A stretch of 61,435 bases of DNA, filler included, from Hausera hauseri (Eukaryota): NCBI GenBank assembly GCA_046269625.1. It is 9 parts of 9 records of this genome, joined end to end, with 100 filler letters (N's around TTAATTAATTAA, not from the genome) between each part and the next. Parts side by side here need not be neighbours in the genome. Positions count along the whole stretch, not along the records: positions 30,263 to 37,949 come from JBJURY010908754.1; 8 more parts are not named here. The stretch is one strand, 5' to 3'. Of this stretch, positions 29,480-56,938 are shown piece by piece; the stretch's first letter is position 1; the number at the start of each line of letters is the position of its first letter. The notes beneath the pieces are model-generated. The model ran no database searches. It saw nothing but the letters and a program-made list of their open reading frames with translations, and was not told the origin of the DNA. The position numbers were made by a program, and so were the translations under genes.

Positions 29480-30127
29480 CTAATCTTTGTAGTTTTCTTG
29501 TTGATATTTAATTTTTAATCCTGCTCTGATCCATGCTTCTTGTAATATTTCCTGTAGAACTGTTGCATAATCCAGTTCCTCCATCAGCTGTGACTGTGGT
29601 TGTTTATATTCAAGGTCAATTGACATAATATCTCCTCTGCCATACAATAAAAAGAAGGGTGATTCTCCAATTGTCGTATGAAGACTTTGTCGGTAAGCAT
29701 ATACACAAGGTTTTATGTATAGATCCCAATCAGCTGGGTGATCATATGCGTAACTGGATCTCATAATTGAAAATTGTTTATTAAAAGCTTCTACCGCGCC
29801 GCTGGCTTGTGGATGGTAGGGCGATATAAATTTATGATTAACTCCTAGTATTGCCAATACTTTTTCCATAAGTTTGGTGCAAAAATTACTTCCTCTACGC
29901 GATATCATTGTCATTTGTACTCCATATTTGAATATTATGTCGTCTACCAATCTCCTGGCCATAACATCCGTGGTTTGGTTTACCATTGGCATCGCTATTG
30001 GAAATTTTGAGTGGTAGTCAATAGCTGTAAGTACACATGTATTTCCTCTAGCGATGGTTTGTAATGGTCCAACTATATCAATGCTTATACAAACGAATGG
30101 TGATGCTAAAACTGGTACTGGTTTCAA
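29480..30127 (-). pseudogene. pol: Ty3/gypsy integrase catalytic core
   Basis: ISIDIVGPL, AIDYHSKF, ISRRGSNF (catalytic D mutated), PYHPQASGAVEAFN. Confidence 0.92.
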
Positions 30128-30339
30128 TGGTGTTTTTCTTGCTTGGAAATTTCCTCTTCTTTNNNNNNNNNNNNNNNNNNNNNNNNNNNNNNNNNNNNNN
30201 NNNNNNTTAATTAATTAANNNNNNNNNNNNNNNNNNNNNNNNNNNNNNNNNNNNNNNNNNNNCGTTTTGATACACGTTTCTTGCCGCCGGACACCTGTTT
30301 GGTAGGGTTACGTTTAACAATCGTTTTCAGAAAATTCTT

Positions 30340-31010
30340 CATTTTTATCATAATCATATCGTAGATTTTCGAATTTGTTTATAGATACATACACCATGTT
30401 TCTGATTGAAAATATCTGTTCGTACACGCATGTCATCGGGACACTGTTGTGTGAAGTCGATGAACAACTACACGAGTGGCTCGGTCGAAGCATTATGATA
30501 TTCTTCTATCAAGTAGGCTCGATTGTGAGAAAATGTTTTTGTGCAACATAATCAATGATAGTCTGATCACGGGGATGTTTGAACAACACCAAATAGTGTA
30601 CGTATAGATTTTGTTCGATGCTGTCCACCCTGATGGAACATGTTTTGCTTAAATAAAATACCCGTTACGCCACGGTGTCGTGCAATCTTCGTGAACAGGT
30701 TGTTGAAGTCCAATTGTCTCGCGGCTTCCTGAGATAAATCGCCAATGACAATAACGTCACCGTTGCGTAATCTCTAGGACCAGTTATCATCAAACCCATC
30801 AATTATTGTTATCAATTTCAGTTCACAAAATTCCCTATGTGTCTAGTCGGACTCACGATCATCACCAACACCCTGATGCCAGTATGTGTGATTGTACCAC
30901 AGTGAATGGAACATGCCACAGCAGTTCTGCAACTGTTTACACGCAAAGTGTGTTTTGCCACTTCTACTGGGGCTTACAATCTGGAAAATGGCGTCATTCT
31001 GCAGCTTCAT
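30340..31010 (-). pseudogene. A32/FtsK-HerA family DNA-packaging ATPase
   Basis: FQIVSPSRSGKT (Walker A), VIVIGDL (Walker B, D>G), LFTKIARHRGVT, QNMFHQG, FKHPRDQ. Confidence 0.85.
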
Positions 31011-31107
31011 CTAATAATAATAATACACATTTTCCTCGCCACATGATTTGTTTATAATCGTGTTACACGCACATATAAATAGCTATAGTACAAATACTGT
31101 TTCCATA

Positions 31108-31520
31108 ATGTTAGCTAATATCAACTATCGCGGACATGTTACCGATTGTGGCATTAAGACACTAACTTTTAATCAGTGGAAGACGAGGCAGTACGTACTC
31201 AAGTGTCCACCGGATTTTACATGCATCGTATTTCAATCAAGAAAGTGTTGCATTATGGGTTGTCGCAAACCAATCACAACTGATAAACTACTATCATTCG
31301 GAATTGTCATTGACAAAATCCAATCTGTACAAATTAGCAATGGTCACTGCTGAATGTACGTAAGAACCCGAACGGTTTCATGCACTGAGACTGACATCGT
31401 TTCGCCCACCATGTGTCAATGTGTTTAACAATGGAAAAATTGTTGTACTCCGTATTCGGACAGTGGACTATGAACCAATCATTAATCAAATTAAAAGCCA
31501 CATAAATGTTTTAGTGAATC
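31108..31520 (+). pseudogene. TATA-binding protein (TBP)-like gene
   Basis: Repeat 1 MLANINYRG...TCIVFQSRKCCIMGC; repeat 2 (other frame) NLYKLAMVTAECT*EPERFHALRLTSFRPPCVNVFNNGKIVVL, compared with TBP YEPELFPGLIYR...LIFVSGKVVLTG. Confidence 0.75.
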
Positions 31521-32366
31521 AAAATAATGTACATTGCACAGCAACAAACTACAAATACCATTTCCATGCTCATTCAGATATTACTGCCATGGAAGTCGAA
31601 GACGATAAAACGATTCTGCTCAATGATGATGATGGTTGTGCGAATGATGAAAGTTCATATTGGTCAAAAAAAAATCTAATGTCAAACTGCTGGAACCTGT
31701 CCAACAATTAGAAAAACCGGGCTATTGTCTGCGTATTGATTGTCTGCAAACGAAACAGGAACTTGCTCAGAAAGCAGCAGCAGCAGCAAAACAGACGTTA
31801 AAAAGGCAAAATGCAATGATTGAAATACGTAAACGAAAATCAAAACCGTCGGCACGCCAAACAGAGATATTTTTACCCCAACGAATTTTTTGCAAGCATG
31901 AAATGCATTTTCTGCAAACTGATTTTGCATTTTCTGCCCGTACTGATTTCATTGAATGATCCCGTGTATCTATGCGCACTCAAGTACAGGTAGCGAAGTA
32001 ATACGGCTTTTGTGTGAAAATTTGGATAAACTTTTTGGTGCTCTACATCAATTAAACGTGGATGTAAAGTTGAACGAAACGACCGCGCAACAGCAATATG
32101 TCGATTTACCAGCGAAGAAAACGAAACGGTTTGATTTCATCGCTCACGAAATGTTTCATGTACCCGATGATGATGGTTTAGAGTATCGACTGAATATCGA
32201 ATTGCAAGGATACAAGGAAAAAGCCGGTATCAAAAGTACGATTTGGCGTGTAGCTGAAGAACAATTTAATTATCAATAAATTTTATTTTACCGATCTTCT
32301 TTCGTCAACCCAATTAACGAGTATAAATGTACGTAAAATTTTAATACTGGCATAGGAATAAAAATA

Positions 32367-32830
32367 ATGAATAATGTAAATTTATCTTAACAGACAAAAA
32401 TGCCTTTGTACAGAGACGTGTTACGGCAAGCTGTGCAAGCTACGATGTGTTTTCCAATATCAATACGACAATTTCCGACAGCACAATCAAATGCATAACG
32501 ACTGGAATTCGATTGGCAATTCCACCACGTTATTACGGCCAACAGATATCGAAAAGCGGAGTGGCAAAGCTCACATTGACGGTTGTGGGCGGCGTTATTG
32601 ATTTAGATTTCTGCGGTGAAATTAAGATGTTGTTGGAAAATTAATCCGAAGAACTGTGTACTTTTTCGAAAGGCAGTGCAATCGCACAAATCGTTTTTCT
32701 TCACTGTGAAGAGGCAGAATTCAGTGTAATGTCACCGAAACAATGCGGATTGTTTTGTGTCAGTGAATTGACATGAAATTAACGCAAAGAATTTGGCTTT
32801 GGTCATATGGACAAAGCCACCTATGTTTAG
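32367..32830 (+). pseudogene. dut: dUTPase
   Basis: ASYDV, TGIRLAIPPRYYGQ, SKSG, GGVIDLDFCGEIK, SAIAQIVF, FGFGH motifs. Confidence 0.9.
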
Positions 32831-32906
32831 TGATTTGTTATGATAATGTTAATAGTTAGTTGTTTTGCTTGTATTATAAGCAAAAATGATTTTTACCAGA
32901 TAAGTA

Positions 32907-33389
32907 ATGGCGACAGGATTTATAGATATTGAAGCTTTGCAATGTGATAATTCTCGGTACATAATAAAGGAATTATGCATTATGGATGTCGGTAACATTT
33001 TCAAAACGCTTATGTATATATTTAAGCCCGGTATTGTGTGGAAAGACCTGACAAAAAAGCGAAAATTACAGATGGATTTCTCTTTCGACATCGTCATGGA
33101 CTTCATTGGTATGAAGACAATTCAAAATGTTGTGAGCCATGTATCATGGGCGAGATATGTGATCGTTTTGACATTAAGAATACAATATTTTAAATTAAAG
33201 ATCAAATTTACGGCCAAAAGTTTACATAACTCTATTCACAGTTTTCCGAGTTGCGAATAACGACGTATTTGAACAACTCGCTGACGATGGTGCCTGACAA
33301 TATCCGATGTGGTATCGTGATCATGTGCCGCATTGTGCTTACAAAAATGTCCACGGCTTTGTATTGACTATATTTCATGTAAATAAATA
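32907..33389 (+). pseudogene. Small DEDD/DnaQ-like protein typical of Polinton/viral-like insertions
   Basis: GFIDIEALQ...YIIKELCI...YIFKP...FLFRHRHGLHW; C-terminal C..H..HCA. Confidence 0.6.
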
Positions 33390-34301
33390 AATGTATTTCT
33401 CTGTTATTTCTCTGTTCAAAACTAAAAATACATATATGTTATATTAATAGTAATTATGGACTATAATGGAAATTGCACATATTTATTACGAATGACTTCA
33501 GTATCATGAAAGTAATTTGTATAATTGCAATGAGACAATACTCACAAAGTAAATATCTATTGTTTGCAGTGAAAACAAACCTTTGTTATAAATAGAGATA
33601 CAATTTCCGTTCACGTTTGTCTTTTTCAAACAATATCTTTTGAAAAAAATTCAGCAGTTGTGATAGTCTTTCAAAAAAGCCATGGTACAGCGAAAATTCG
33701 CTCAGAAATTCCCGGTTATATAATGGATACAACTTACATTATCTGCGCAACGCTATTCAATTGCTATTGACGCAAACGGTCTAAATCAACCGGTGAAATA
33801 TGGTCTATTTGTGAAAAAGATCAGCGACGTTGATTTGAATACAATGGAAGACACGATTAGAAAAGTTGACAGTAATTTGTTGTTGACTAACGATATCCGA
33901 GACATCGTCGATTTTTCTCGAAGGAAATATGACCAATATCGTCCGTTCACATGGCAGAGAAACAGTAGCAACAGCAGCCTTGCCACTAGAAGGAGCTAAA
34001 GTTCATTTAACATTGAAGATGAAAGGATACAAGAAAGCTGGAAAGTTTATGCTGATTTGACTTACTTTGTTCTTGATTTTAGCTTATGATTAATAAATTT
34101 TATTGATTTTGTTTTTCATACTGTTTCTCATCACATTAAGTTAAATATATAAATCTGTATATATATATAAATTAAATGATAATAAAACAAAGGGCAAAAA
34201 CAACGAACAATATACATTATTTACACAAAATAAACAGATCACAATAAATTGTCACAGTAATTTGATCTGTCCGTATCATCAGCACCGAATTCATGCATGT
34301 T

Positions 34302-37220
34302 TTATTTTAAATACCAATGTCCATACGCCGAACTGTTATTATTCCATACATACTTATGCTTATCATCATTGCATGTTAAATCGTCTTTTGTATTGGTCAC
34401 GGTATACTGCTGGTACTCAATCGATCGGATGATCGTTTGTGACACAACAGCCTTTGATTGTCCTCCTCCCGCCTCCTCCACTGCCTTCTGCTCCTACTTC
34501 ATAGATACGGCAATAATCGCCGTGATTTATCTCCGTCGGGCCAAATGAACTCCTTTAACGCGCATTTTCGGTCCACCGTCATTTAAAAGGATATAACATT
34601 TTGGCCTTACAAATACCCATTCTTGATACTGAACCCTTCCTTTACTTTCATCCTTGAAGCAGCCGATTTTGTAGGTGATTGCGCTGCTGTACAATGGATG
34701 ATCCGGTGGATAGTTTAACGTTTTCAGTAATCCATCTGACTGCATTTGCTGCAGTAGCTGTTCGCGATTGACTTTCTTCAAACGCAGGAAAAAACTATCT
34801 GTATCACCGGCAATTATACTAATGTCACCACCGTCAAACATTTGACGGTAACGTGCCGAATCGCGATACTGCAGCTCATACATTCGCAACTTGCTCAGAT
34901 CCAATGCCACTTGTCCTATATAACTTGGCCGGTCCAGTAAGACTTCTTCCCTGTTTAAACAAACGGCAACCAATTCATCGTCAATATGCATTGACCGCCG
35001 AAACTGTGCCTTGCTGGTATACGTAAAGAGCCGCTTTTCCAAGCCGCTTTTTCAGATTCTCTACTGTTTTTCGTACAGAGATCGTTTTACAGCTTGTAAT
35101 AGTCCTTTTCGAACTTTGTACAAGCTTCGGCTCGTTTCTCCGAATTTCCCTCTATGTACTCCTTAAACATGAGAGCCAAAATAAATTGGATTGCACGATG
35201 CAGCTGTGTGACGCGCCCACCGAGCTGCATGTAGAACTGTAGCAGACGCCAATGGACCACGTAATTCAGCTTTGGTTTATGTGTCATGAGCAGTTTCTTC
35301 ACTTTTGAGCCTGGCGGACATTGATTAAATGGTGCGACCGGTAAATCGTCCAAAATGTCATGCAGCTCATCCGGTACCACGAGATCGACCTCCATCAGGT
35401 ATCCGACTGAGCTTGCCATGTCTGCTCGTGATAGGTTGACCATTATGTCGTCCAGATCTTGTCAGTCGACTACCCATTCAAATTAACCGTACGGGAAGGT
35501 TTGCGAATGGAGGTCGATCTTGAGATATGAGCCGTACAGGTTATTAATATCAATATACAGCAGTGATGTGGTATCGGCGGCGGCGGCGCTGACCTGATGC
35601 TTGTTGACAAATGCCATGCCACCGCGAATACGAACATCAAACATTCGGCACATTTCCGGGTTTTGCAGCAGCTTAATGTCTCGATCTAGTGACATTAGAG
35701 CTGACTCCAAATTCATTCCCGTATGGAATAAAAGTTGAGTGGCTCCGACCTGTCTTCCCTCAGCGCTTTGTTCCAAAATGCTTCAAACACATCGGCTAAT
35801 AAGTACACGTTTAGTGTATAATACTAGAGCATGTAACCCAACATGTTTGTACAGTTCAGTTCTGTCCAAGATTCTTGTGCTCTCCGATATTCATCTTCTG
35901 CGATATCTGTCGATCGAGGAGGTAATTCCTTTTCTGTCCCGAGTCGCTCATATAATGTTGCAAAGTCATATGGAAATATGACTTTTTTGCGTGAAATATG
36001 TGCGGGGAACTGCGTCAGTACTAGCGACATATCTGGCAAGACATTTATCAGCTTTTCCAGAGATTCATTGAAAAATTGCAATGAATGAAGGAAGCGTACC
36101 TGGAACCGGTTAATACAAGCAGACGATGACAAGCAATGCTGAATCGTAGTCGGAATTATGGAGAATTCCCAGTGGGGGAAGCCGCTAATAGCCCATTTGA
36201 GAATATGGTGACAGTCATAACCTTGGAAATTATAAAAAGTCACCGAGAGGAATGGTCGCACTCGCCTTCATAAATTGCATGAATTGCATGCTACTCCCAA
36301 GTATCGACCGGTAAAATGGTCGTGATTCATTACGAGCCGTTTCTGTGCATCAAACGGTATTATTTTGTGGCACACTTAGCATTCATCAGTGACAGAAAAA
36401 AGCAACGGTTTATATTCGTCTGTCCAAATCGCTGGCTTATTGCAATTGTTGCAATACCATGGCGCGATTTCCGTTTCAACTATGGTGTCTAACTGTTGTA
36501 GAAAATCATGTACACAGTTCCAACGATGGGAAACGTAATACTGCGGTTGTCTGGAGGCTTTTATTGGTACTAGCAACATACCGACGGCAATTGGAACGTG
36601 CTTTTGATCGTATACATTGTGCCGTTGTAGAATTGCTTCGATATGAAGGACTGTCCGTTTTTTGACCAGTAACTAAATCTCAACTCCTTTTTGACCGGCA
36701 TAACATACATTGTGGTTTCTGACGAAGTTTGACTACTCAGCGCTACATGCATTTCCCATGTCTTTTTTCACCTGAATCCATGCAGACACACGGGACACCA
36801 TTTGCATCACATACGCTTCTTGATGAACTGGTCATGCTCCATGTTCAACAATCTGTCCAAATTGGTCACGGCCATGTAATGAAACTTTTCTTCATTCTCC
36901 AACAGCAACAAATTTACTGGGTGTCCAATTGAATTTCGACTGCGGTAAATTACATCCACGTGAGGATTCTTGTAAATTTTCACATCCTCCTGTATCTCTA
37001 CAATTGTGTTGAACCGGAACACGTTGATTGCCAGTGTCAAATTACGCCGTTCAAAAGCTGGAATGGATTTTAGTTTTATCGGTATCCAACACTCGTCGTA
37101 GTCAAATTCTGAGAATAATGAGCAGGCGAGAGTATATTGAATTACTGGTCAGATCTTTCTTCGTAAAACGTATCGAGAATGAAATAAGACAAAAACGACA
37201 ACGACGTATTAATTTCTTCA
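34302..37220 (-). pseudogene. Protein-primed family B DNA polymerase (Polinton type, with endonuclease VII-like insert), copy 1
   Basis: HDHFTGRYLGVACNSCNL, FYNFQGYDCH, KVIFPYD, IRGG, YIDINNLYG, YIGQVALDLSK, GDTDSFF, GCFKDE, RPKCY. Confidence 0.93.
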
Positions 37221-37949: not shown

Positions 37950-39732
37950 NNNNNNNNNNNNNNNNNNNNNNNNNNNNNNNNNNNNNNNNNNNNTTAATTA
38001 ATTAANNNNNNNNNNNNNNNNNNNNNNNNNNNNNNNNNNNNNNNNNNNNCTGACTAAATGTCTCATACAATAGCTCGCCATGTGCAATTGCTGAAATCTG
38101 CCATGTCTGACTTGAGAGTTCATCAGTACAGGTTCTAGCCTTGCATTTGTAGACCTTTTTTGCTTTGTCTCTTACTCTCACTTGCCAGGCTATTTTGAAT
38201 TTTAGTTATGCAGAACTTACAAGACAGAATCCACTTTGGTGAAAATTCATTACTGCCCATATCTTTTGGTCCTCTTATGCAGATGTGGTCATCTTGCTGG
38301 TGTGTGTCAATGACTCGCTATGTTTGCTCCACAGCCAACTCAAAGTCCTCTTTGCCAGCTCAGCTATTCTCATGAGTGCTTTTGGACATTGTCTCTCCCT
38401 TCTGTCCTAATTGCTTCATGACATTGTTTACCGAGGTTGTGACCAGACCCAACTTCCACAGCTAAGGTTCTGTTTTACTTCATTTGGTCAGGTCATTATA
38501 CCTTGACATTTTCAAGCTATTCTGCTCCTCAAGCCTAATTTTGAAAAGTTTTCGATCTTGGGTTTGAAGGGTCTTATCTGTGATTATGTGTCTACATGCA
38601 ATCATGCACCCACTTGTTGATAGAGGGAGTAATGCACGCTCTGCTATTTTAGTCATGTTGAATAAAGAATAACTTTTCTAAAAAAATAAAGTGGAAAACA
38701 TTTAGCAAGGAATGAGGAACTTAGACGAGTCAGTTTTCATTTGGTGTTGCAACCATTTGACATGTATCTGTGTTTTTTGTTGCAAGTTAATTATTTTTGA
38801 GAAAAGAGAAATTGTTCACTGTAATTTAGTCACATTAAAGATTTGTGGCCTTGCCGCTCATAAAACATTATCCATGAAATTAAATAATAATATGGTGGAT
38901 AAGCAGAAAACAAATCAAATTGTGGATAATTATGAGTGAGACTAACGATGAGAAAAACAAAGCTACCAAATGAAAATACGATTAAATAGTTGGCGTTGCC
39001 TACAGTGAAAGTTACTGGATACCAGGCGATGTTCAATCTCCTAGCTTTGTTTCTTAAAATTAAGTGGTACTTGTGTACTATTTATAGTTACCATTTTAAG
39101 CACCACAGCGGTAATGTGACAACGTAAGAATGAATTTTAAGATTTTAAAATCCTATATCCACATCATTTGGGTTTCCTCCATCATCAACGACACTTCCAT
39201 CATCACGGGGCCTCATCACTTGTTTTATGTATAACAAATATTAACATAACACGAAGGACAAAATCCATATCCTACTTTCATTGATATGCAGTTGACGATA
39301 AATTTTGTTTGATGATATCAATTAGTTGTACCACTGACCGAATAGTTTTTATAATTAAATGGCTTAATGTGTTACAAGCGTTTTTACTGCTAGGCGGAAT
39401 TATTTTTTATGAAAATTAGTTATATAGGTACAAAATTTTATGCTGGATAATATTATGAATTAACTTTCACGCAAAAATAGAAATACATAAAAAGTAAGAC
39501 ATTCCAATTGTTACTCCATTTCACTCTTCAATTTTCCCCTAATATGCAGAACTTCGAAACTCTGCTAGCAAGGAGCACTATCTTACTTTTAGTGAGAGTT
39601 TTCCCAGTTCTGCAAGTACGATATTTTATACTGATTAATAATGTGAAAAGTATTTTTGCAAACAAAACTAAGAATATGCAATATGAGATTCAACATGTTA
39701 TGTCATTTTGCACTTCATCAATTTCGTCCTAA

Positions 39733-40050: not shown

Positions 40051-40309
40051 AACATTAGAGATAAATTTAGAAAAAGACAAAGAAATATTTTACTGGTGTG
40101 TAGTATTCTTACTGGTGCAGTTGTAATATTTTTATCAAGATTTGTTCGATAATGTGTTTAACCTTTTTATTTTATAAATGTTCACAAACGGTGTAAAAGT
40201 TCACAAAACCAAAACGTAATTACAATGATTAAAAAACCTTATTAACAAAACAAAGACGGTAAAGAAAGAAATATTTATTAACATGAAATATATACAATAA
40301 TCAAATACA

Positions 40310-42344
40310 ATAATGTCCATAAGCAACTGATCGGTTTTTCTCAATCCATTGGCGTTTATCGTCAAAGGGATCCAATGCTTTCTTTTTTGAGCAGATTGAC
40401 ATAAGTTGATGGTTTTTACTGCCAATTCATTCTTGGTCCACTATAGTCCCACAACCGGTTTCATAAGCTTGTAAGTAGCTATCGAATTGTAAATCTGATT
40501 GTTTTAGATTTACACCCTTGCACTTGAGAACTGGTTTGTTTTGAGTTTTGAGAGCATAGGATTTCGGTCGTAGGAAAATCGCCTCCTGATACTGAACGCT
40601 GCCCTTGCTTTCGTCTTTAAATTTCCCAATTACTGATGCAAAACGAGTCGAATACAGCGGATCACTCTTATCATATTTTGATGTATCTAATTGTTCATTT
40701 GTTATCATTGCAGGTAAAAGTCGGGATTGTAAGTCCACACCACAGAATTCAATGAAGAAACTGTCAGTGTCACCAGCAACAACATTATGTTCACAATTGA
40801 ACTCCAACTTGATGTAATTCAATTCATACATTTGTAACTTAGACAGATCAAGTACGGCCTGACCGATGTATGATGGTCTATTTAATGTGACCATATCTTT
40901 GTCAAGGAGAACAGCAACCAGATCATCGGCTATGATAATGCTCTCTTTAAACTGGGCCTTATTAGCATATGTGACTAGTTTTTTAGGATTATTACACAGT
41001 CTAACGTTTGACCTATTTAGCAAATTCTTTACTGTTTTACCGTATAAGCTGTTGTTCTTAAGCTTAAAAAAGTCTTTTTCAAAAGGATTATTTGCGGCAG
41101 CCCTTTTAGCAGTATTTAGATCGATGTAATCCTTAAAGACATAACCCTGGTCAAACTCAACAGCCCGATGCACTTTCTCAACTACAGCACCTAACTCGAT
41201 GTACAACTGTAAGAGCATGTAGTGAACAACATAGTTGGACTTATGCTCATGTGTAAGCAGCAATTTCTTAACTTTAGAACCAGGTGGACATTTATTAATT
41301 GGAGCAAGAGGTAATTGGTCAAAATTATCATGTTTGTCAGCCGGAATGCTTAAATCAACTTCAAATACTAAGCCCCGTTTTTCCTTAACACAGTCAATGT
41401 AAGGTAATTGTTGGATCAGACTGGTCAAGACGTCCTCATCGTAAATCCAAGTCAGATTCGCAAATGACACAGGTTGTGATAAAGCCCAACTGTATAAATT
41501 ATTTACATCTATGTATAGGAGACTGGTACTTTCATCGGAGACAACCGTATGATTATTTACAAAAGTCATGCCACCGCGAATACCTGATTGAAAGAAATTA
41601 TACATCTCAGTATTTTGAATGAGTTCAATACGGCACGGATTCATTTTCAGTGCAGTTGGCCAAGATAAACCAGGAATAGAGACAAATTTAAGGGCCTCTA
41701 AACCATCCTGCAATTTAACCTCCTTTCTAAACCGTTCAAAGACATCGCCTAACAAGTATACGGCTACAACTGTCTTTAGACCAAATCAGTTGTGCTTCCG
41801 CATAATTAGTATAACTAACACAATCCAATTTCGGTGGTAACTCCTTAATAGACTGCAAGTCAGTGAAACATTTGGCTGCAGTATATGGAAAAATACCCTT
41901 TCCCTTAATAGTTTTAGAAGGAAAAGCCGACTCAGTAAATGGGTAACTGTCTAAGTTGGAAGCTAAAATCGTCAGTGAAGCCGGAAGAAACTGCAGCGAG
42001 TCGAGAAACCGAATAGATACTAACGTCTTTCCCGATTAGCGCATAATTGCATTCATTGTTAGGAACTTCTCTGTAGTTTGTGAGATAACATTTAATCCCC
42101 AACTTCCGAATTTACTAAATTCATGTTTCAAGATATGATGCAGGTCATATCCACGCAAATTGTGAAATATAACAGGTAAATTATTATCAAATTTTACTTT
42201 AACGTCGCACTGTTGATAACAACGTACTTGATTCGCAACATGACCGGGTGTGCGCACCGTGACCTTTGGCCTTCTGATGACCTTATTCGCCTCATAATTA
42301 CGAATAAGCTGTACTTTTATGTCAATTACGTGTTTGTTGAACAT
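40310..42344 (-). pseudogene. Protein-primed DNA polymerase B, divergent copy 2
   Basis: FHNLRGYDLH, GIRGG, YIDVNNLY, KLKNNSLYGK, YIGQAVLDLSK, AGDTDSFF, GKFKDE, LRPKSY. Confidence 0.93.
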
Positions 42345-45299
42345 TTGGTCAGCAACATGAATATTGACATTGGCCGATGTAGTATCAATAGCGTAATCAA
42401 GTATAGCCTACTCGTTTTCGAAAATCGTTGAATCGCAATTTTTTATAAATTCAATAAAAGTCTTCTGGAACATGTTAGGGAAGTTAATAATATTTGAGGC
42501 CAACGTATTATATAGGTAATTCAATTTGAATACATCAACAATCAGGTCATTACACCATCCAAAAAGAAATGCCTCTGACAATTCCAAAAGATGATAGTAG
42601 AACTTCATAACTTTGCATCAACTGATGAAACACAATTGTCTTCATTGTTAGTGTGATTTTTCTATATGATAAAGATCTCTGAGAATTTACTGGCGGTTAT
42701 AAAATATAATTATCCAATTTCATCCGAAATATAAAAAAATGGCACAGCAAAGAAAAAAAAATTAACTTCAAATTTCAAGCGAGTTCAAAAATTTATTACT
42801 TTGTTTAAACAACTAAAAATTATTCACATATAACATAGTTTAAATCACAAGTCTGATACTAAATTCCTCATCGCAAGTATTTACAAAATAAACAATAGTA
42901 CATATTCGTACAAGAGTTCAAACACGTCTCACTGAATCCCTTATGGAATTGCCGTAAAATATAAGATCCAGCCACGGAAAATATGTTATTACTTATTGAC
43001 GACGTATTTTGCAATGGCAATCTGCATTCCGTTGTTATTGCCATCGGGATAAAATTCCAGTTTGTGACATTTGGGAAATAATTTCGTAACGGTTTTATTT
43101 TTGACGATTTTCAGAATATTTTCAGTGTAGAATGTTGAAGTTGTAATTTTCAATATCAACATTAATTGACGGATAAAGAAAAGCAAATATTTGCTCATTA
43201 TCCACAATGGCTGACTGAACTTCTTCGGCATAAAAAACTGCTTTGCAGGCAGTTGGCAATTCAATGAAAATCAAACGCCCTCTGGATCCATTTAAGAAAA
43301 AATGCGTTACCAATTCCGGAACCATCTGTTTCAATTTCTCATAATTTACATTTTGAAAGCAGGATATAATTAACGTTCGCAGTCTGCGGTTAATGATGAG
43401 ATTTGGTATTTCGTTTCGCTGACGAAAGTTTATAGATTTAGTGATAAATTTAACGGTAGATTGTTCGTCATTGACTGTTTCTTCTGTTTATTCTACTTCG
43501 TCTCTCGTTGAATCTGCTATATTGCCAATATGATCTAGTATGAAAATACTTTCATCGTCAGTATTCTTAACTTTCTTCGCTTTATGTTTTAACGGACTTT
43601 CGGTTATGCTTTTTAATTTACATTTCTTGCTTTTTACTTTGACTTCCGCTTCATTTACAATTATTTCGGCGTCATCTGCAACATCATCAGTCTTAAGATA
43701 AGTAACCTTTTGATTCTTCTGTTGTTTCCCTTTTGGTTGTTTCGGAATAGTACCGTGGCTTTTGTTTGCTTTATTCTTATTATTTTAATTTATTACTTTG
43801 ATTCATTTTGAGGATCACCAGTTAAGAAAAATGGAATTATGAACTTTTGAGTTTTGTTTCTGTTGCGGATGGACCAAAAACTTATAGCTGTTTCACCAAT
43901 ATACACAGTCTCTACTCTTCCACGGTTCCTCCAAATAACGTTTGACGTATTGGCAACGGCAATTTTTGATTTTTGCCGAATTGCTATCGTGATCGGATTC
44001 CCGAAATATCTTTACACTAACGAATGGTTTTTCCAAAGAGTGAGAAATTGATGACGTTCGGAACCTTTTTTTCCTTTTTTTGACAAATTATTTCTATATG
44101 CTCAACCATCTGTTGCAACGTTGCTTGTGGCTAATGCTCAATGAATTTTAGCGAATATTGTCCAATGGAATGATCTAGTTTGACAGATTTGCATCGGGAG
44201 TGTTTTTCCGAACTGGTACGGCCATATTTTTGATAACTGTAAATTATGTATTTTACTGTTGACTCTGGAATACCCAAACGATTGTCTAACAAAATGTAAT
44301 CTTGATTATTTAAAAATGTGTTGACGAGTTTTTCTTTATCGAAATCTCATACAGCTGATCATATCTTCCGCTTCTTCATCTGAGCATCTGTATTATCTGC
44401 ATCATCATCGTAACTTTCTTCGTCTGTTTCTGACGATGATTTTGTTGGTTCTGCAATCTCCAAGCTAATTTGAGACAAAGGAATTCTTCGAGTGACTACC
44501 ACTTGTCGCATTACTTGATTTATCTAATTTTAATACCATCAATGTTACTCATTAGTATTTTGTCATAAGACTTATGATGTTTAATAAATTCTCAAAGTCA
44601 TGCAGGAAACGCAAAAAATATCACCGTCCAAAATCCCTTCGTTCGAATTCAATTCGATCGATAGTCGAAAAGTTGTAAAGACTAGATCTTTGTCAATGAG
44701 TAAGACAAATGCAACGTTTGGCCTGTTCGAATTTTCTCCTTTAAATGTGGATGATACTTTGTGGAAAATATCGATTTGGCGGGAAAACAGTGGAGAATCG
44801 TTGTTGAGACAGACGATAAATGTCATTGATGGTGATTTGATAATGTTTTCCAACTGTTGTTAAGACGTGGGGTGATGATATGGGAAGTAGAGTCTCGATG
44901 CGAAGTCGTGGACGTCAACTGGGTCATAGGAACCTTTGTATTCGACAAAAAATCGAGTATGCAAGTGAGCTAACAATTGTAGAAATCGGATGAGTTTTAG
45001 GACTCGGTAACATTCGCTTTTATTGTTCTAGCAGTTGATGGACACAACGGGCACTTTATATTCCAGTATATCGGCAATATGGGTGATACCCTTCCGGCGA
45101 ATTAGACTTTAAAATTAGTTGAAACCTGTCGAGATGTAGAAGCACTAGTCTGAGATTTTGGATTACGGAAATTTTCGAGTCGGAAGATCGGGCCCAACTA
45201 TGGGTCCGACTTGGCGCCAACGGAGGCCCAGCCGTGCCAAACCAAATGGGTCAAACGGCACCGCCGCTGTGGGCACCATACTATGTGCCTTTGAAATGT

Positions 45300-47256: not shown

Positions 47257-47595
47257 NNNNNNNNNNNNNNNNNNNNNNNNNNNNNNNNNNNNNNNNNNNN
47301 TTAATTAATTAANNNNNNNNNNNNNNNNNNNNNNNNNNNNNNNNNNNNNNNNNNNNAAATGTCTCATGTACCCGATGGCGATGATGGTTTAAAGTGTCGA
47401 CTGAATATCGAGTTACAAGGATACAAGGAAAAATCTGGTATCAAAAGCCCGATTTGGCGTATAGCTGAAGCACATTTTAATTAACAATAAATTTTGTTGT
47501 CTTTGTTGTTTTGTTATACCGTTCTTCTTTCATCAACCCAATTAACGAGTATAAATATACGTGTAATTTTAATGTTGGCATAAGAATAATGATAA

Positions 47596-48062
47596 TGAAT
47601 GATGTAAAGATTATCTTAACAGACGTAAATGCCTTTGTACCGAGACGTGTTGCAGCAAACAGTGCAGGCTACGATGTTTTTTACAATGTCAATACGACAA
47701 TTCTGGACAGCACAATCAAATGCAGAACGACTGGGATTTGATTGGCGATTACACTCGGTTACTACGGCCAACTTTTATCGAAAAGCGGATTGACAGAGCT
47801 CGGACTGACGGTTGTGGGTGGCGGCGTCATTGATTCAGACTTTCGTAGTGACATTAAGGTGTTGTTGGAAAATCAATCCAAGGAACCGTATGCTTTTTCG
47901 AAAGGCAGTGCCATCGCACAAATCGTTTTTCTTTGATGCGAAGAGGCGGAATTCAGTGTAATGTCATCAGAATAATAGAAATTGTTCTTCATCAATGAAT
48001 CGATACGAAATGAATGCAAAGAATTTGGCTTTGGCGGTATGGACAAAAGGAATTATGTTTAA
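47596..48062 (+). pseudogene. dut: dUTPase
   Basis: PRRVAANSAGYDV, GYYGQLLSKSG, GGVIDSDFRSDIKV, SAIAQIVF. Confidence 0.92.
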
Positions 48063-48134
48063 TGATTTTGATAATAATAATAGTTAGTTGTTTTGCTTGT
48101 TATAAACAAAAAATGATTTTGTACAAGATAAGTA

Positions 48135-48605
48135 ATGGCAACAGGATTTATAGATATTGAAGCTTTCTGAGATGATAATGCTCGGTACATAATATAGGAA
48201 TTATGCATTATGGACGTGAGTAACATTCTTGAACCGCTTGTGTACATATTCAAGCCCGGTATTGTGTGAGAAGACCTGACAAAAAAATATAAAATTATAA
48301 ATGGATTTCTCTTTCGACATCGTCATGGACTTTATTTGTATTAAGGCAATTTAATTTTCTGTATGGCGTGTATTACGGGAGAGATTTGTGATCGTTTTGA
48401 TATTGAAAATACAATATTTTACATTAGAGATCAAATTGACGGGCAAAAGTTTACACAACACCATTCACTGTTTTTTGACTTGCGAATGACGACGTGTTCA
48501 ACAACATCGAACAACTCGCTGGCGATAGTACTTGACAATATCCAATGTCAGTATCGTGATCATGTCTATGGCTTTGTATTGACTATGTTTCATGCAAATA
48601 AATAA
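48135..48605 (+). pseudogene. DEDD-like small protein, copy 2
   Basis: MATGFIDIEAF..., homologous to 32907-33389. Confidence 0.6.
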
Positions 48606-49007
48606 ATGTATTTCTGTTTCTTTTTTCTTTCCGTAAATAAAGTACGCTGTATTGATCAGCTGAATAAGTCAAAAATTATAAATACGGGTAGGAAGTAATA
48701 TTAGTCATCATGGAAATAGTTAATCAACTGAAGCAATTGCAAAATTTTTATGGATTATCAATTTCAGACTTGGTACGATGGCGGTAAGTACTTGATAGTG
48801 ATTTGATTGCGAGAGAAGCAGGTGATTTTGGATTCAAAGAAGATTTAGCGTCAATAGCATTGATGACAGCAACAAGAGATTGCAGCTCTATAGAAATTCT
48901 AATTACTGTGTTAAATCAAATGTACAATCACCGATTGTACGATACAAATGACTTTTAATACTGTTGGAAAGGTACGCGGTAGATTAACGAATTTGAAATA
49001 GAAAATA

Positions 49008-49190
49008 ATGGACAAAGTACGAGACTGTCAGCTTATGTGTGTACTATATAAACAAAGAAAGTGGATGCGGTATTATTAATGTGAGGCCATCTTGTTTGTC
49101 AAATGTGTGACACCAAAGTAACATCCCAATGTCCAGAATGTAAATGTGCTATAATGAAAATTGTAAACATGGACTTCAATAACGTATAGG
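49008..49190 (+). pseudogene. C3HC4 RING finger (IAP-like spacing)
   Basis: CVLYKQRK/VDAVLLM*GHLVCQMCDTKVTSQCPECKCAI across one frameshift. Confidence 0.7.
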
Positions 49191-50039
49191 TAATTTGTAT
49201 CATTGTGATAGGAGACAATACTCACAAAGTAAATGTCTTGTTTTCAATGAAAACAAACCTTTGATATAAATAGAGATGCAATTTCATTTCACGTTTGTCT
49301 TATTTAAAAAGTGTTTTTGGTAAACAATTTAGCAGGTGACAGTCTCTCAAAAAATCCACGGTACAGCGAATATTCTTTCAGAAATTTCCGACTGTATAAT
49401 AGATGCAACTTACATTATCTGTGCAACGCTATTCAATTGCCATTGACGCAAATGGTCAAAATCAAACCGGTAAAATATGGTCTATTGGTGAAAAAGATCT
49501 GCGACAATGATTCGGATACGATGAAAGACAGAATTAGAAAGGTTGACAGTGATTTGGCGTTGAGTAACAATATCCGAGATACATTGTCGATTTTTTTCAA
49601 AAGAAATATGGCGAAACAGCAGCAGCAGTTTTGTCACTGGAAGGAACTAAAGGCTATCTGACACTGAAGCTCAAAGGATTCAAGGAGATGAGCGGCGTCA
49701 AATTTCCAATATGGAAAATTTGGAAGTTTACTATGATTTAACTGACTTACTTTGTGTTTTTGTGATTTAGTTTTTTTCCGATCAATAAATAAATGCATTC
49801 CTGTTACATATTTTACTTTCTCGTGCAAGGTAGTTGTTTCACTTTTACTTCTCTCTTACTTAATAATAATAGCTTAAGTAAGTAACCGAAAAAAAACACA
49901 AAAGACACTGAACAAAATACGTTGTTGAAATATAAAAAGCAATATACATCGAATAATTGTCAATGATTGTCACAGTAACTAAACTGAACTGAACGGAACT
50001 GATGAGTCTGAACTGACAGAGCACCTATTGTTTGGACGT

Positions 50040-51333
50040 GCATTTATTTCAGCCACCAATGTCTATACGCTTAACTCTCATTTCGCCCCNNNNNNNNNNC
50101 CCACTTTCGCATATCATCGTTACATGACAAAGCGAATTTCGCACTAGTTATTGTGAACAGCTGATGTTCAATTGATCGGTGATCGTTTGAGACATAACAG
50201 CCACTGATTGTCCTCCTTCTGCTGTTTCTTCACATATACGGCGGTAATCAACGTGGTCGATTTTCGCCTGTTTCAGCTTTTCTCCTTTTTCCGCATTTTC
50301 GGTCCACAGTCCATCAGAAGACTGTAGCACTTTGGGCGTAGGAATATCCATTCCCAATACTGAACCCTGCCTTCACTTTTATCCTTGAAGTAGCCGATTT
50401 TGTTGGTAATCGCGCTGCTTTACAACGGATGATCCGGTGGATAGTTGGACGTGTCCAGTAATCCATCTGACCGCATTTCTGCAATAGCTGTTAGCGATTG
50501 CCTTTTTTCAGCTGCAGGAAAAAAACTGTCTGTGTCACCGGCAATTATACTAATGTTACAGCCGTCAAACGTTTGCCGGTAACGTGCCAAATCGTGATAT
50601 TATAGCTCATACATCCGCAACTTACTCAGGTCCAATACCACTTGTCCGATGTAACTTGGCCGGTCCAGAACGACTTCTTGTCTATTTAACAGCACCGCAA
50701 GCAATGCATCGGCAATGTGCATTGGCCGCCTGAACTGTGCCTTGCTCGTGTACGTGACCAACCGCTTTTCGCTATTGCGTAGGCGTACATTAAGCCGCTT
50801 TTTCAGATTCGCTACTGTTTTCTGTACAGAGAATTGTTTTTCAGCTTGTAGTAGTCCTTTTCGAACCTTGTACAAGCTGCGGCTCGTTTTTCCTAATTTC
50901 TGTCTACGTACGCCTTGAATATGGGAGCCTGAACAGATCGGATTGCACGATGTAGCTGTGTGACGCGAACACCGAGCTGCATGTAGAACTGTAGTAAACG
51001 TCAATGGACCACGTAATTTAGCTTCGGTTCATGCGCATGAGCAGTTTCTTCACTTTTGAGCCTGGCAGACATTGGTTAAATGGTGCGACCAGTAAATCGT
51101 AAAAAACGTCATGCGGCTCATCTAGTACCACGAAATCGACCTCCATCAGGTATCCGACTGAGCCTGTCATGTCTGCTCATGGTAGGTTGGCCATTATGTC
51201 GTCCAGATCTTATCTGTCGAGAAGCCATTTGAATGAACCATACGGCAAGGGTTGCGAAAGCGCCCAGCCGTGCAGGTTATTAATATCAATATACATCATT
51301 GATATGGCATCGGTAGCACTGACTTGATGCTTG
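50040..51333 (-). pseudogene. pPolB C-terminal half, copy 3 (close to copy 1)
   Basis: YIDINNLHGWALSQPLP, YIGQVVLDLSKLRMYEL, GDTD, GYFKDK. Confidence 0.9.
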
Positions 51334-55265: not shown

Positions 55266-56010
55266 CTAATGTCTTAGGTTCGATCTTTTGATGATGCTGT
55301 ATTTTCCGTAAATGCCATTTTTATCACGTATTTCCAATATATCCAAAATTTGAAAACGCACACGACTTTCACTCTTTTCCGTTGAATAAGCTGTTGCTTC
55401 GTTGCATAGACTAATGAACAGAGAAACGAACCACCAGATAAATTTTCGACATTTTGTCCAGATTCTGTTTTCTACTTTATCGTTGAATTTCCTGAAAATC
55501 TCATTAAATTCAATATACATGTCATTGAGTAAGAAATTAATCTCACAACCCAAGTGATCTAAATCCAAAATCTACTGTTGTTGTACTGTGGGGTCTTCCA
55601 TGGACTTAATTACAACCATTACTTCGTGGATAAATGAATTTTTCAAGGCCGATGATTTTATTATAGTCGATTTGGTTGGTTCCAACAGATACTGAGCGAT
55701 ATCGGTACAACGAATTTGCATAAGAAAACGGATGATTTCGGAAGTTTGTGGTCGACGAATACATTCTGAATAAAGCATGGCACCTTTCGTTGCAGAAATA
55801 TATACAATGCTCATATCGAAATAAAATGCACTACTAATCGGATGAGTAACGCCAACGATGGGGAAAATTAAGGTTCGACAAAAAGTAATTAAAAGCTTAG
55901 GCGGTTTCCGCGAACTACTCATAAATGATGTTATTTCGGTCTGCAGCAATTTATGTAATTGTTTATCCAAATCATCTGATGCACAGCACTTCATCAATTC
56001 ATGCATTGCA
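55266..56010 (-). pseudogene. MIF4G-domain-like fragment fused in frame to the kelch pseudogene
   Basis: Helical region ending SRVRFQILDILEIR, similar to the eIF4G MIF4G C-terminal motif SRIRFMLQDVLDLR. Confidence 0.4.
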
Positions 56011-56019
56011 AAGTACGCG

Positions 56020-56938
56020 GGTATGTATAGCTGTTGGACTGATGTCCATTTATTTGTCAAACCCGGTTGCCATTTTTCAACAAGAGCTATTGTAGAATTG
56101 CCACTTCTTATGTTTCTGATTGGAGCTATTTGAGTCCATTGATCAAGTTTAGGATCGTACACTTCAACCGAATAATAAAAGTGATGCCAATCAAAACCAC
56201 CACATATCTGGGCATCACATCCAGCATCGCTTCTAAACTGTTTCATAGGTGGCACGAATGACCAATGGTTTTGTGTTGGATAATATCGTTCAATTGAGCT
56301 AAGTCTGTTTCTGCCATTATGTCCGCCGATTGCGTAAATAAAATCGTCCAGCAAGCAACAAGTTATATGGCTTCTTTTTTACGCATTGGTGATAAGTATT
56401 TCCATTGTTTAAAAATAAAATCGAACATTTTCAGGGTCTGAGTCGGACCAGATGTTACGTAACCGCCGATAACATAAATCCTATTACGGTAAATTACACA
56501 TCCCGAGTATGCATGCCCTTCGTCGAGTCCCATTGTCTCGTCAACAATTCGTCTCCACAAATTTGCTCGGCTGTCGTAAACTTGTATGGCTTTTGACGGG
56601 CCAAAATTTGGATCATCTTGGTTGCCTTCCCATCCACCAACCACTATTATTGCCTCTCGAGGTAGTCTCGGTCGGTGGAAATACATCATCGCCGACAGGT
56701 TCGAATCATTTCGGCTAATTTGCGATATTTCAGATGACATTTTAGCCCATGGAATAAAAATGCTGCAATCACTCCATGACTTTGTGACATATTTACAATT
56801 CACAACTCGATTAAGTTCATCTTCAGTCAATCTGCCCAAACGCAAACATTTAATTATATCAGGACAAATGGCGATTCGATCATTTGGATTGAATTCGATC
56901 CATTTTTCTACAATAGGCAAAAGTTTTAATTCATTTTT
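56020..56938 (-). pseudogene. KLHL10: KLHL10-like BACK/Kelch protein, intronless, with frameshift and in-frame deletions
   Basis: RPRLPREAIIVVGGW, VYDSRANLW, IYVIGG, IYAIGGHNGRNRLSSIERY, RSDAG, ICGGF, IAPIRNIRSG match the KLHL10 layout as recalled. Confidence 0.75.

Follow-up and report, generated by a model that had tools for sequence, protein, structure and literature searches.

The gene at positions 31108-31520 of the window, by which we mean the whole 61,435-nt stretch of Hausera hauseri DNA that was analysed, is confirmed as a broken copy of a gene for a TBP-fold protein of about 147 aa that belongs to a clade of Polinton/Maverick elements. We refer to this protein as mini-TBP. Our preferred reading, for which we estimate a probability of roughly 55% from sequence comparison, is that mini-TBP is an early-expressed TBP of altered specificity that would serve late promoters by recruiting host TFIIB and RNA polymerase II. 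The fold, the linkage to Polinton genes, purifying selection, the loss of helix H2, the kept TFIIB stirrup, the altered DNA face, and the presence of two promoter classes all speak for this role. The copy in the window is itself a dead relic that is unable to make protein, and the interest rests with its family.

The window consists of unrelated contigs joined by eight linkers of the form N44-TTAATTAATTAA-N44, and genes on opposite sides of a linker are unlinked. The linkers that flank the gene cluster, at 30163-30262 and 37950-38049, both lie outside it, which rules out a scaffolding artefact as the source of the linkage. Because the ATPase, the TBP gene, the dUTPase, and the protein-primed DNA polymerase B (pPolB) share a single contig (30263-37949, JBJURY010908754.1), the association of the TBP gene with a Polinton is real; pPolB and a packaging ATPase, the pair by which we recognise a Polinton/Maverick, are both present on it. 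A reading made earlier from the sequence alone had placed a TBP-like gene inside a Polinton-like element, divergent from the packaging ATPase. This arrangement is borne out, as the two genes stand head-to-head with 97 bp between the ATPase start (31010) and the TBP ATG, and pPolB lies on the same contig.

Table 1 Features of the TBP gene cluster and its surroundings in the window
Feature	Position	Strand	Remarks
Integrase	29483-30160		Retrotransposon gene, on another contig than the TBP gene
A32-type packaging ATPase, broken	30354..31010	-	Stops, frameshifts; 52% identity to L023 ATPase, E 3.5e-60
Second TATAAAC	30377..30383	-	Inside ATPase 3' end, 40 nt ahead of next ATG (30342)
TATAAAC	31050..31056	-	Candidate late promoter; non-coding, ~45 nt ahead of ATPase start
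Canonical TATA box TATAAATA	31074..31081	+	Candidate early promoter, ahead of TBP gene
Mini-TBP gene, broken copy	31108..31520	+	ATG 31108; frameshifting deletion near 31321; in-frame stop (TAA) 31361-31363
Predicted ssDNA-binding protein gene (T7 gp2.5/Enc34-type OB fold)	31589..32279	+	Frameshifted
dUTPase, open piece	32375..32641	+	Pfam PF00692 E 6.1e-10
DEDD-type exonuclease-like gene, fragmented	32904..33363	+	blastx to cluster found in 22/80 related loci
Protein-primed DNA polymerase B (pPolB), fragmented	34305..37118	-	36-48% identity to L033 pPolB

A relative of the window ATPase matches Pfam Pox_A32 above the cut-off, and the window pPolB itself gives PF03175 with E 0.0028, below the cut-off. 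The gene after mini-TBP is, as a lead only from fold comparison (Z 7.4-7.6, rmsd 2.6-3.0, 101-105 residues aligned), a putative single-strand DNA-binding protein (SSB) gene. The exonuclease-like gene has no Pfam match, and its DEDD label follows motifs that we take to be those of such enzymes. Elsewhere in the window, 47357-51333 is another decayed copy of the element that carries the TBP gene; it comprises the SSB end, the dUTPase, the exonuclease, and pPolB and is 78-80% identical to 32149-35603. A separate contig carries the pPolB of another Polinton family on the minus strand (40304-42212; Pfam E 3e-16), with an MMACHC-family match upstream of it (42039-42407; E 1.7e-6). Kelch-repeat ORFs with no obvious introns lie at 55575-56935 on the minus strand, beside a reverse transcriptase fragment on the same contig.

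Both TBP half-repeats that the sequence-only reading had recognised are found with the motifs as it quoted them, the motifs being partly decayed forms of those of the family. The frame-shifting deletion that it placed near 31320 also holds up. A DNA search for sister copies, with 40 scored among 1816 candidates, was followed by pairwise alignment of the window copy to 19 of them; at 31320-31326 the window copy has a gap of 44 nt relative to 14 sisters and of 39-41 nt relative to 3, and the remaining 2 carry indels of their own at this site. The in-frame TAA downstream of the gap had been overlooked. Divergence between the window copy and its sisters amounts to 9-12% of sites. The frame is open over the core in 3 of 20 copies, with a pooled dN/dS of 0.63 among them, and the other 17 are broken. 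Because open frames are so few and the ratio stands at this value, the window family is an old burst that is now decaying. The virus-like Polinton family to which it belongs has many decayed copies in the H. hauseri genome.

A naturally open sister copy (L005) matches the Pfam TBP profile (PF00352) in two stretches with 54.4 bits (E 1.2e-14), whereas the broken window copy alone stays below the cut-off of 22.9, its N-half giving no match and its C-half 14.2 bits (E 0.039). All PDB sequence matches are TBP. Searching for homologs yielded 156 proteins out of 179 candidates, most of them 144-180 aa long and 36-76% identical. The predicted model, built from an alignment of 84 sequences (pLDDT 95.6), superposes on TBP with Z 13.4 and rmsd 2.5 over 143 aligned residues, its residues 1-147 covering yeast TBP 66-234, whereas the next-best fold reaches Z 6.6. 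In a Foldseek search with this model, 44 matches had E <= 0.001, and those listed are TBP throughout. Thus, membership of the TBP superfamily (PF00352) follows from two repeats above the cut-off in L005 and from the saddle fold. Among distant relatives, one protein of 219 aa has an extra TBP half-repeat (P0189), and another of 388 aa has a long N-terminal extension (P0246).

The residues of the binding saddle were compared in yeast numbering, assigned through the host TBP loci L102/L103 and the motif register, over 84 aligned homologs. Kept residues are N69 (80 of 84), F116 (83), F190 (84), P191 (76), and F207 (84), as well as the acidic C-lobe stirrup that contacts TFIIB, recognised by sequence only (E186 in 82, E188 in 83, and L189 in 78). 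Fixed changes affect V71 (N in 82), F99 (P in 84), V122 (R in 83), T124 (M in 84), N159 (S in 83), I194 (R in 82), V203 (C in 84), and L205 (N in 84); V161 is likewise replaced and fixed, and T215 is Leu in 67. Three of the four canonical intercalating phenylalanines are therefore retained, with proline at the F99 position in 84 of 84 homologs by motif register. Of the canonical N69/N159 and T124/T215 set, only N69 survives, the other three being replaced. Helix H2 of the N-lobe is missing: the model has no helix of at least 4 residues between strands 46-52 and 66-79, and the spacing over this region is at most 27 residues in 81 of 84 homologs versus 34 in host TBP, with host-like spacing retained in the other 3. 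The F99 and H2 assignments come from motif register and the predicted model, not from residue-level superposition. We take H2 to be the docking surface for TFIIA, TAF1, Mot1, and Brf1; a literature search on H2 partners found no paper.

The gene is widespread. Of 132 metagenome loci with a TBP homolog, 80 were kept, and 38 of these have one or more of the core Polinton genes, namely those for ATPase, integrase, capsid, penton-like protein, protease, and pPolB; the others are mostly short. Neighbour clusters comprise ATPase (27 loci), exonuclease-like (22), SSB-like (22), integrase (17), penton-like (14), PLA2 (14), capsid (11), protease (9), and pPolB (8), so that the linkage to pPolB and ATPase expected from the window recurs in other loci. 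Mini-TBP genes occur in Polintons with PLA2 and in Polintons without it. In the genome of H. hauseri itself, three contigs with 79-85% identity to the contig at 30263-37949 (L174, L186, and L187) join the window-family TBP to ATPase, integrase, and virion genes, including those for major and minor capsid proteins and a cysteine protease. Their gene order is protease, capsid, core-like, penton-like, integrase, small gene, and ATPase, followed on the divergent arm by TBP, SSB, dUTPase, and exonuclease. The integrase and protease calls are backed by relatives that pass Pfam; the capsid call stems from a weak Capsid_N match (E 0.0073), size, and position, and the penton call from position only. 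A 12.7-kb TBP-bearing Polinton contig (L171, JANOGQ010000345.1) is binned in a Lysobacterales MAG, where it is probably contamination. A viral contig scan with the TBP alignment returned one large-virus TBP and no element.

Mini-TBP is under purifying selection between elements: for diverged pairs (<92% identity), dN/dS is 0.07-0.46 and mostly 0.13-0.3, and near-identical pairs give noisy values, two of them above 1. In an unrooted quick-search tree of 71 hand-picked rows (54 element, 8 cellular, and 9 other), all 54 element proteins cluster together (SH-aLRT 100), and the host TBP groups apart from them with eukaryotic TBPs. The tree rules out a recent capture of host TBP; its rows include no herpesvirus, nimavirus, or poxvirus TBPs, so it assigns no donor. 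It had also been proposed that this lineage carried its own minimal TBP. Profile, fold, linkage, and purifying selection uphold a TBP of the elements' own, but not one specific to a lineage, as the clade is wide and counts 156 homologs; mini-TBP is an old gene of a wide Polinton clade. These data largely refute a very improbable reading in which the gene is a functionless host TBP retrocopy within a transposon or owes its neighbours to assembly. While TBP-derived pseudogene-like loci occur in the genome, the window is built of joined contigs, and 17 of 20 copies are broken, the gene shares a contig with ATPase and pPolB, the same layout recurs on other contigs, the element TBPs stand as one group apart from host TBP, and selection has acted between elements.

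A search for TBP families in this genome (150 scored among 1995 candidates, all above the cut-off) revealed at least three mini-TBP families, at least two of them besides the window family (L107, L113, L121, and L125). The same assembly contains host-type TBP loci that are intron-free over long stretches, along with two BRF1-like genes and a TFIIB gene (L102, L103, L108, L137, L139, and L144). The two BRF1-like genes are very different, and the TFIIB gene is intronless and divergent. One BRF1 is presumably nematode-like and the other vertebrate-like, and the assembly may therefore be mixed.

Two promoter classes emerge upstream of the element genes. A canonical TATA box precedes the TBP gene in 16 of 19 sister copies and in 26 of 43 non-redundant relatives (9.6 expected). 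For the SSB gene, the canonical TATA box is at chance level in relatives (5 of 17), yet it is present in 12 of 15 sister copies from the same genome. The second class is TATAAAC, which lies ahead of the ATPase in 16 of 19 sister copies. With near-duplicates removed, ATAAAC within 80 nt of the start was counted against 200 shuffles, and it was found upstream of ATPase in 25 of 25 cases (2.0 expected), capsid in 9 of 10, PLA2 in 9 of 11, penton-like in 9 of 13, and small basic genes in 5 of 7, as well as ahead of the non-virion genes exonuclease (15 of 22) and integrase (7 of 14). Each of these seven counts exceeds all 200 shuffles. The motif is rare upstream of TBP genes (2 of 43) and SSB genes (3 of 17). 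In own-genome capsid loci, it was scored in 12 of 22, with window edges and decay explaining some of the misses.

The base 5' of ATAAAC is T at 56 and C at 26 of 87 sites, hence YATAAAC. Among 90 motif sites, 42 are non-coding, 33 lie within the upstream ORF, and 15 fall on the upstream stop codon; 8 of 9 capsid sites belong to these last two groups. The ATPase sites are non-coding in 19 of 25 cases, and 17 of 25 are located 28-55 nt before the ATG (p 0.002). A stop-codon or poly(A) by-product is thus an insufficient account of the motif: non-coding DNA holds 42 of the 90 sites, a pyrimidine precedes 82 of 87, and the motif of the window family sits between divergent genes.

Moreover, the motif accompanies the TBP gene. 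In 16 loci with a TBP gene, ATAAAC stands ahead of 46 of 90 ORFs, compared with 6 of 159 (11.9 expected) in 24 loci that have pPolB or ATPase and no TBP match; this contrast is confounded by ancestry because the TBP-less controls are distant and partial contigs. In the TBP-less loci, it precedes 1 of 14 Walker-A ATPases, one false row having been dropped. Viral contig scans for close TBP-less controls, with an ATPase alignment and a capsid protein, found none, and the controls used are distant pPolB elements only; shared ancestry, with one clade set against distant partial contigs, could thus be the source of the contrast. The same assembly also has a GC-rich family of Polinton-like elements (L131 and L132) in which an ORF of capsid size immediately precedes the ATPase and ATAAAC is absent.

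As TATAAAC is one base off the canonical TATA, host TBP might read it. This proximity, together with the kept TFIIB stirrup and three phenylalanines, would suit a general TBP stand-in or decoy that binds ordinary TATA boxes or, by sequestering TFIIB, lowers host transcription, host TBP or another factor being the reader of YATAAAC. We consider this unlikely. The DNA-facing changes are near-invariant across homologs that are 41-77% identical to the query, as expected for specific sequence reading, and the motif tracks the TBP gene while avoiding that gene's own promoter. Less likely still is a TBP fold that now serves to bend DNA in replication or genome packaging rather than in transcription. 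In favour of this role, 22 of 80 loci have an SSB-like gene next to the TBP gene, the TBP frame continues into the SSB frame in 11 of 19 window-family copies, and the N-lobe is heavily remodelled. Against it, the TFIIB-binding stirrup residues show 93-99% conservation, and the motif is strand-specific and lies as far from start codons as a promoter would. The SSB gene also has a TATA box to itself, and longer forms, when searched for, amounted to 2 proteins (267-275 aa) among 113 candidates. A TBP-SSB fusion as the normal form is unsupported on these last two grounds.

TBP and TFIIB are a textbook, DNA-dependent pair. Under the preferred reading of a late-promoter TBP, transcription of the TBP and SSB genes would come first, driven by host TFIID at their canonical TATA boxes. 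Mini-TBP would then bind YATAAAC, with the C at position 7 under the remodelled N-lobe, and dock host TFIIB via its stirrup to bring in RNA polymerase II, so that ATPase, capsid, and other virion genes would be transcribed late. The loss of H2 would free mini-TBP from host factors presumed to grip that surface (TFIIA, TAF1, Mot1, and Brf1). Available passages of one study describe I194, V203, and L205 as the three sites of the altered-specificity mutant TBPm3, assign reading of the 3' half of the TATA box to the N-lobe, and report that TBPm3 selects against C at positions 6-8 (PMC1636458). All three sites are replaced in mini-TBP, and the unusual C of the motif falls in the 3' half. No TFIIB-like partner was seen among the scanned neighbour clusters, and the intronless TFIIB-like gene L144 does not lie beside Polinton genes in its locus ORF list. 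The suggestion that the elements redirect host transcription to their own promoters is plausible from sequence comparison, and it now has a candidate target motif.

Although Polintons have capsid genes, they encode no RNA polymerase; mini-TBP and the candidate heptamer make the timing of their virion-gene expression a testable question. We advance more tentatively the idea that a clade of animal Polintons runs an early/late cascade through a one-gene switch, in which a 147-aa TBP, having lost half of its regulatory surface and acquired a naturally altered DNA specificity, would read a private YATAAAC and bring in host TFIIB and Pol II with neither TFIID nor any other viral factor. If true, this switch would amount to a minimal system for late transcription in a virus and would indicate that these elements had a true lytic programme. 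Mini-TBP is also a natural deletion and specificity mutant that shows which TBP surfaces are dispensable.

The adintoviruses and MELD viruses are the same type of element as the mini-TBP Polintons, as far as the available passages describe them (Starrett et al. 2021, PMC8502044). There, the legend of Fig. 5, which belongs to the non-animal section and covers MELD viruses with related elements, bears the label "TBP". Those passages contain no TBP analysis, distribution, or promoter motif and specify neither genome nor family for the label, and TBP is absent from one supplement file. In the main text of Jeong 2023 (PMC10748475), TBP, TATA, and promoter have 0 occurrences. This bare label is thus the only published mention of a Polinton, Maverick, or adintovirus TBP found in the texts available, whose figures and preprint supplements may bear on priority.

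Cellular TBP (PF00352; PDB 1ytb, 1cdw, and 1mp9) and mini-TBP share the two-repeat saddle fold (Z 13.4), and N69, F116, F190, P191, F207, and the stirrup residues E186/E188/L189 are common to both. However, mini-TBP is ~25 residues shorter, lacks H2 and has a reduced H1 in the N-lobe, has F99, N159, and at least 6 other DNA-facing positions replaced, is 17-25% identical, and forms a separate long-branch clade. It is a member of the TBP superfamily that fails three tests of a canonical TBP, namely the phenylalanines, the Asn/Thr set, and H2. Large DNA viruses (NCLDV and haloviruses) likewise encode proteins of TBP fold, whereas their BFVD matches at E <= 0.001 are 186-547 aa long, and in the tree the sampled L021-type proteins lie outside the clade of element proteins. 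Many large DNA viruses with TBP-like genes encode their own RNA polymerase.

A functional parallel may be the vTBP of beta- and gammaherpesviruses. KSHV ORF24 is described as mimicking TBP and as reading the TATT of late promoters with a DNA face that is polar (PMC12529657); mini-TBP is likewise a viral TBP with a more polar DNA face and a TATA variant before structural genes. According to the same source, ORF24 is a multidomain protein of 752 aa in which the four phenylalanines are all retained, the acidic residues for TFIIB are missing, and five further viral factors are needed as partners (PMC12529657), whereas mini-TBP is a bare core with the stirrup kept, no extra domains, and no partner gene found. 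By analogy, mini-TBP may work like a herpesvirus vTBP, though it is not a member of that family.
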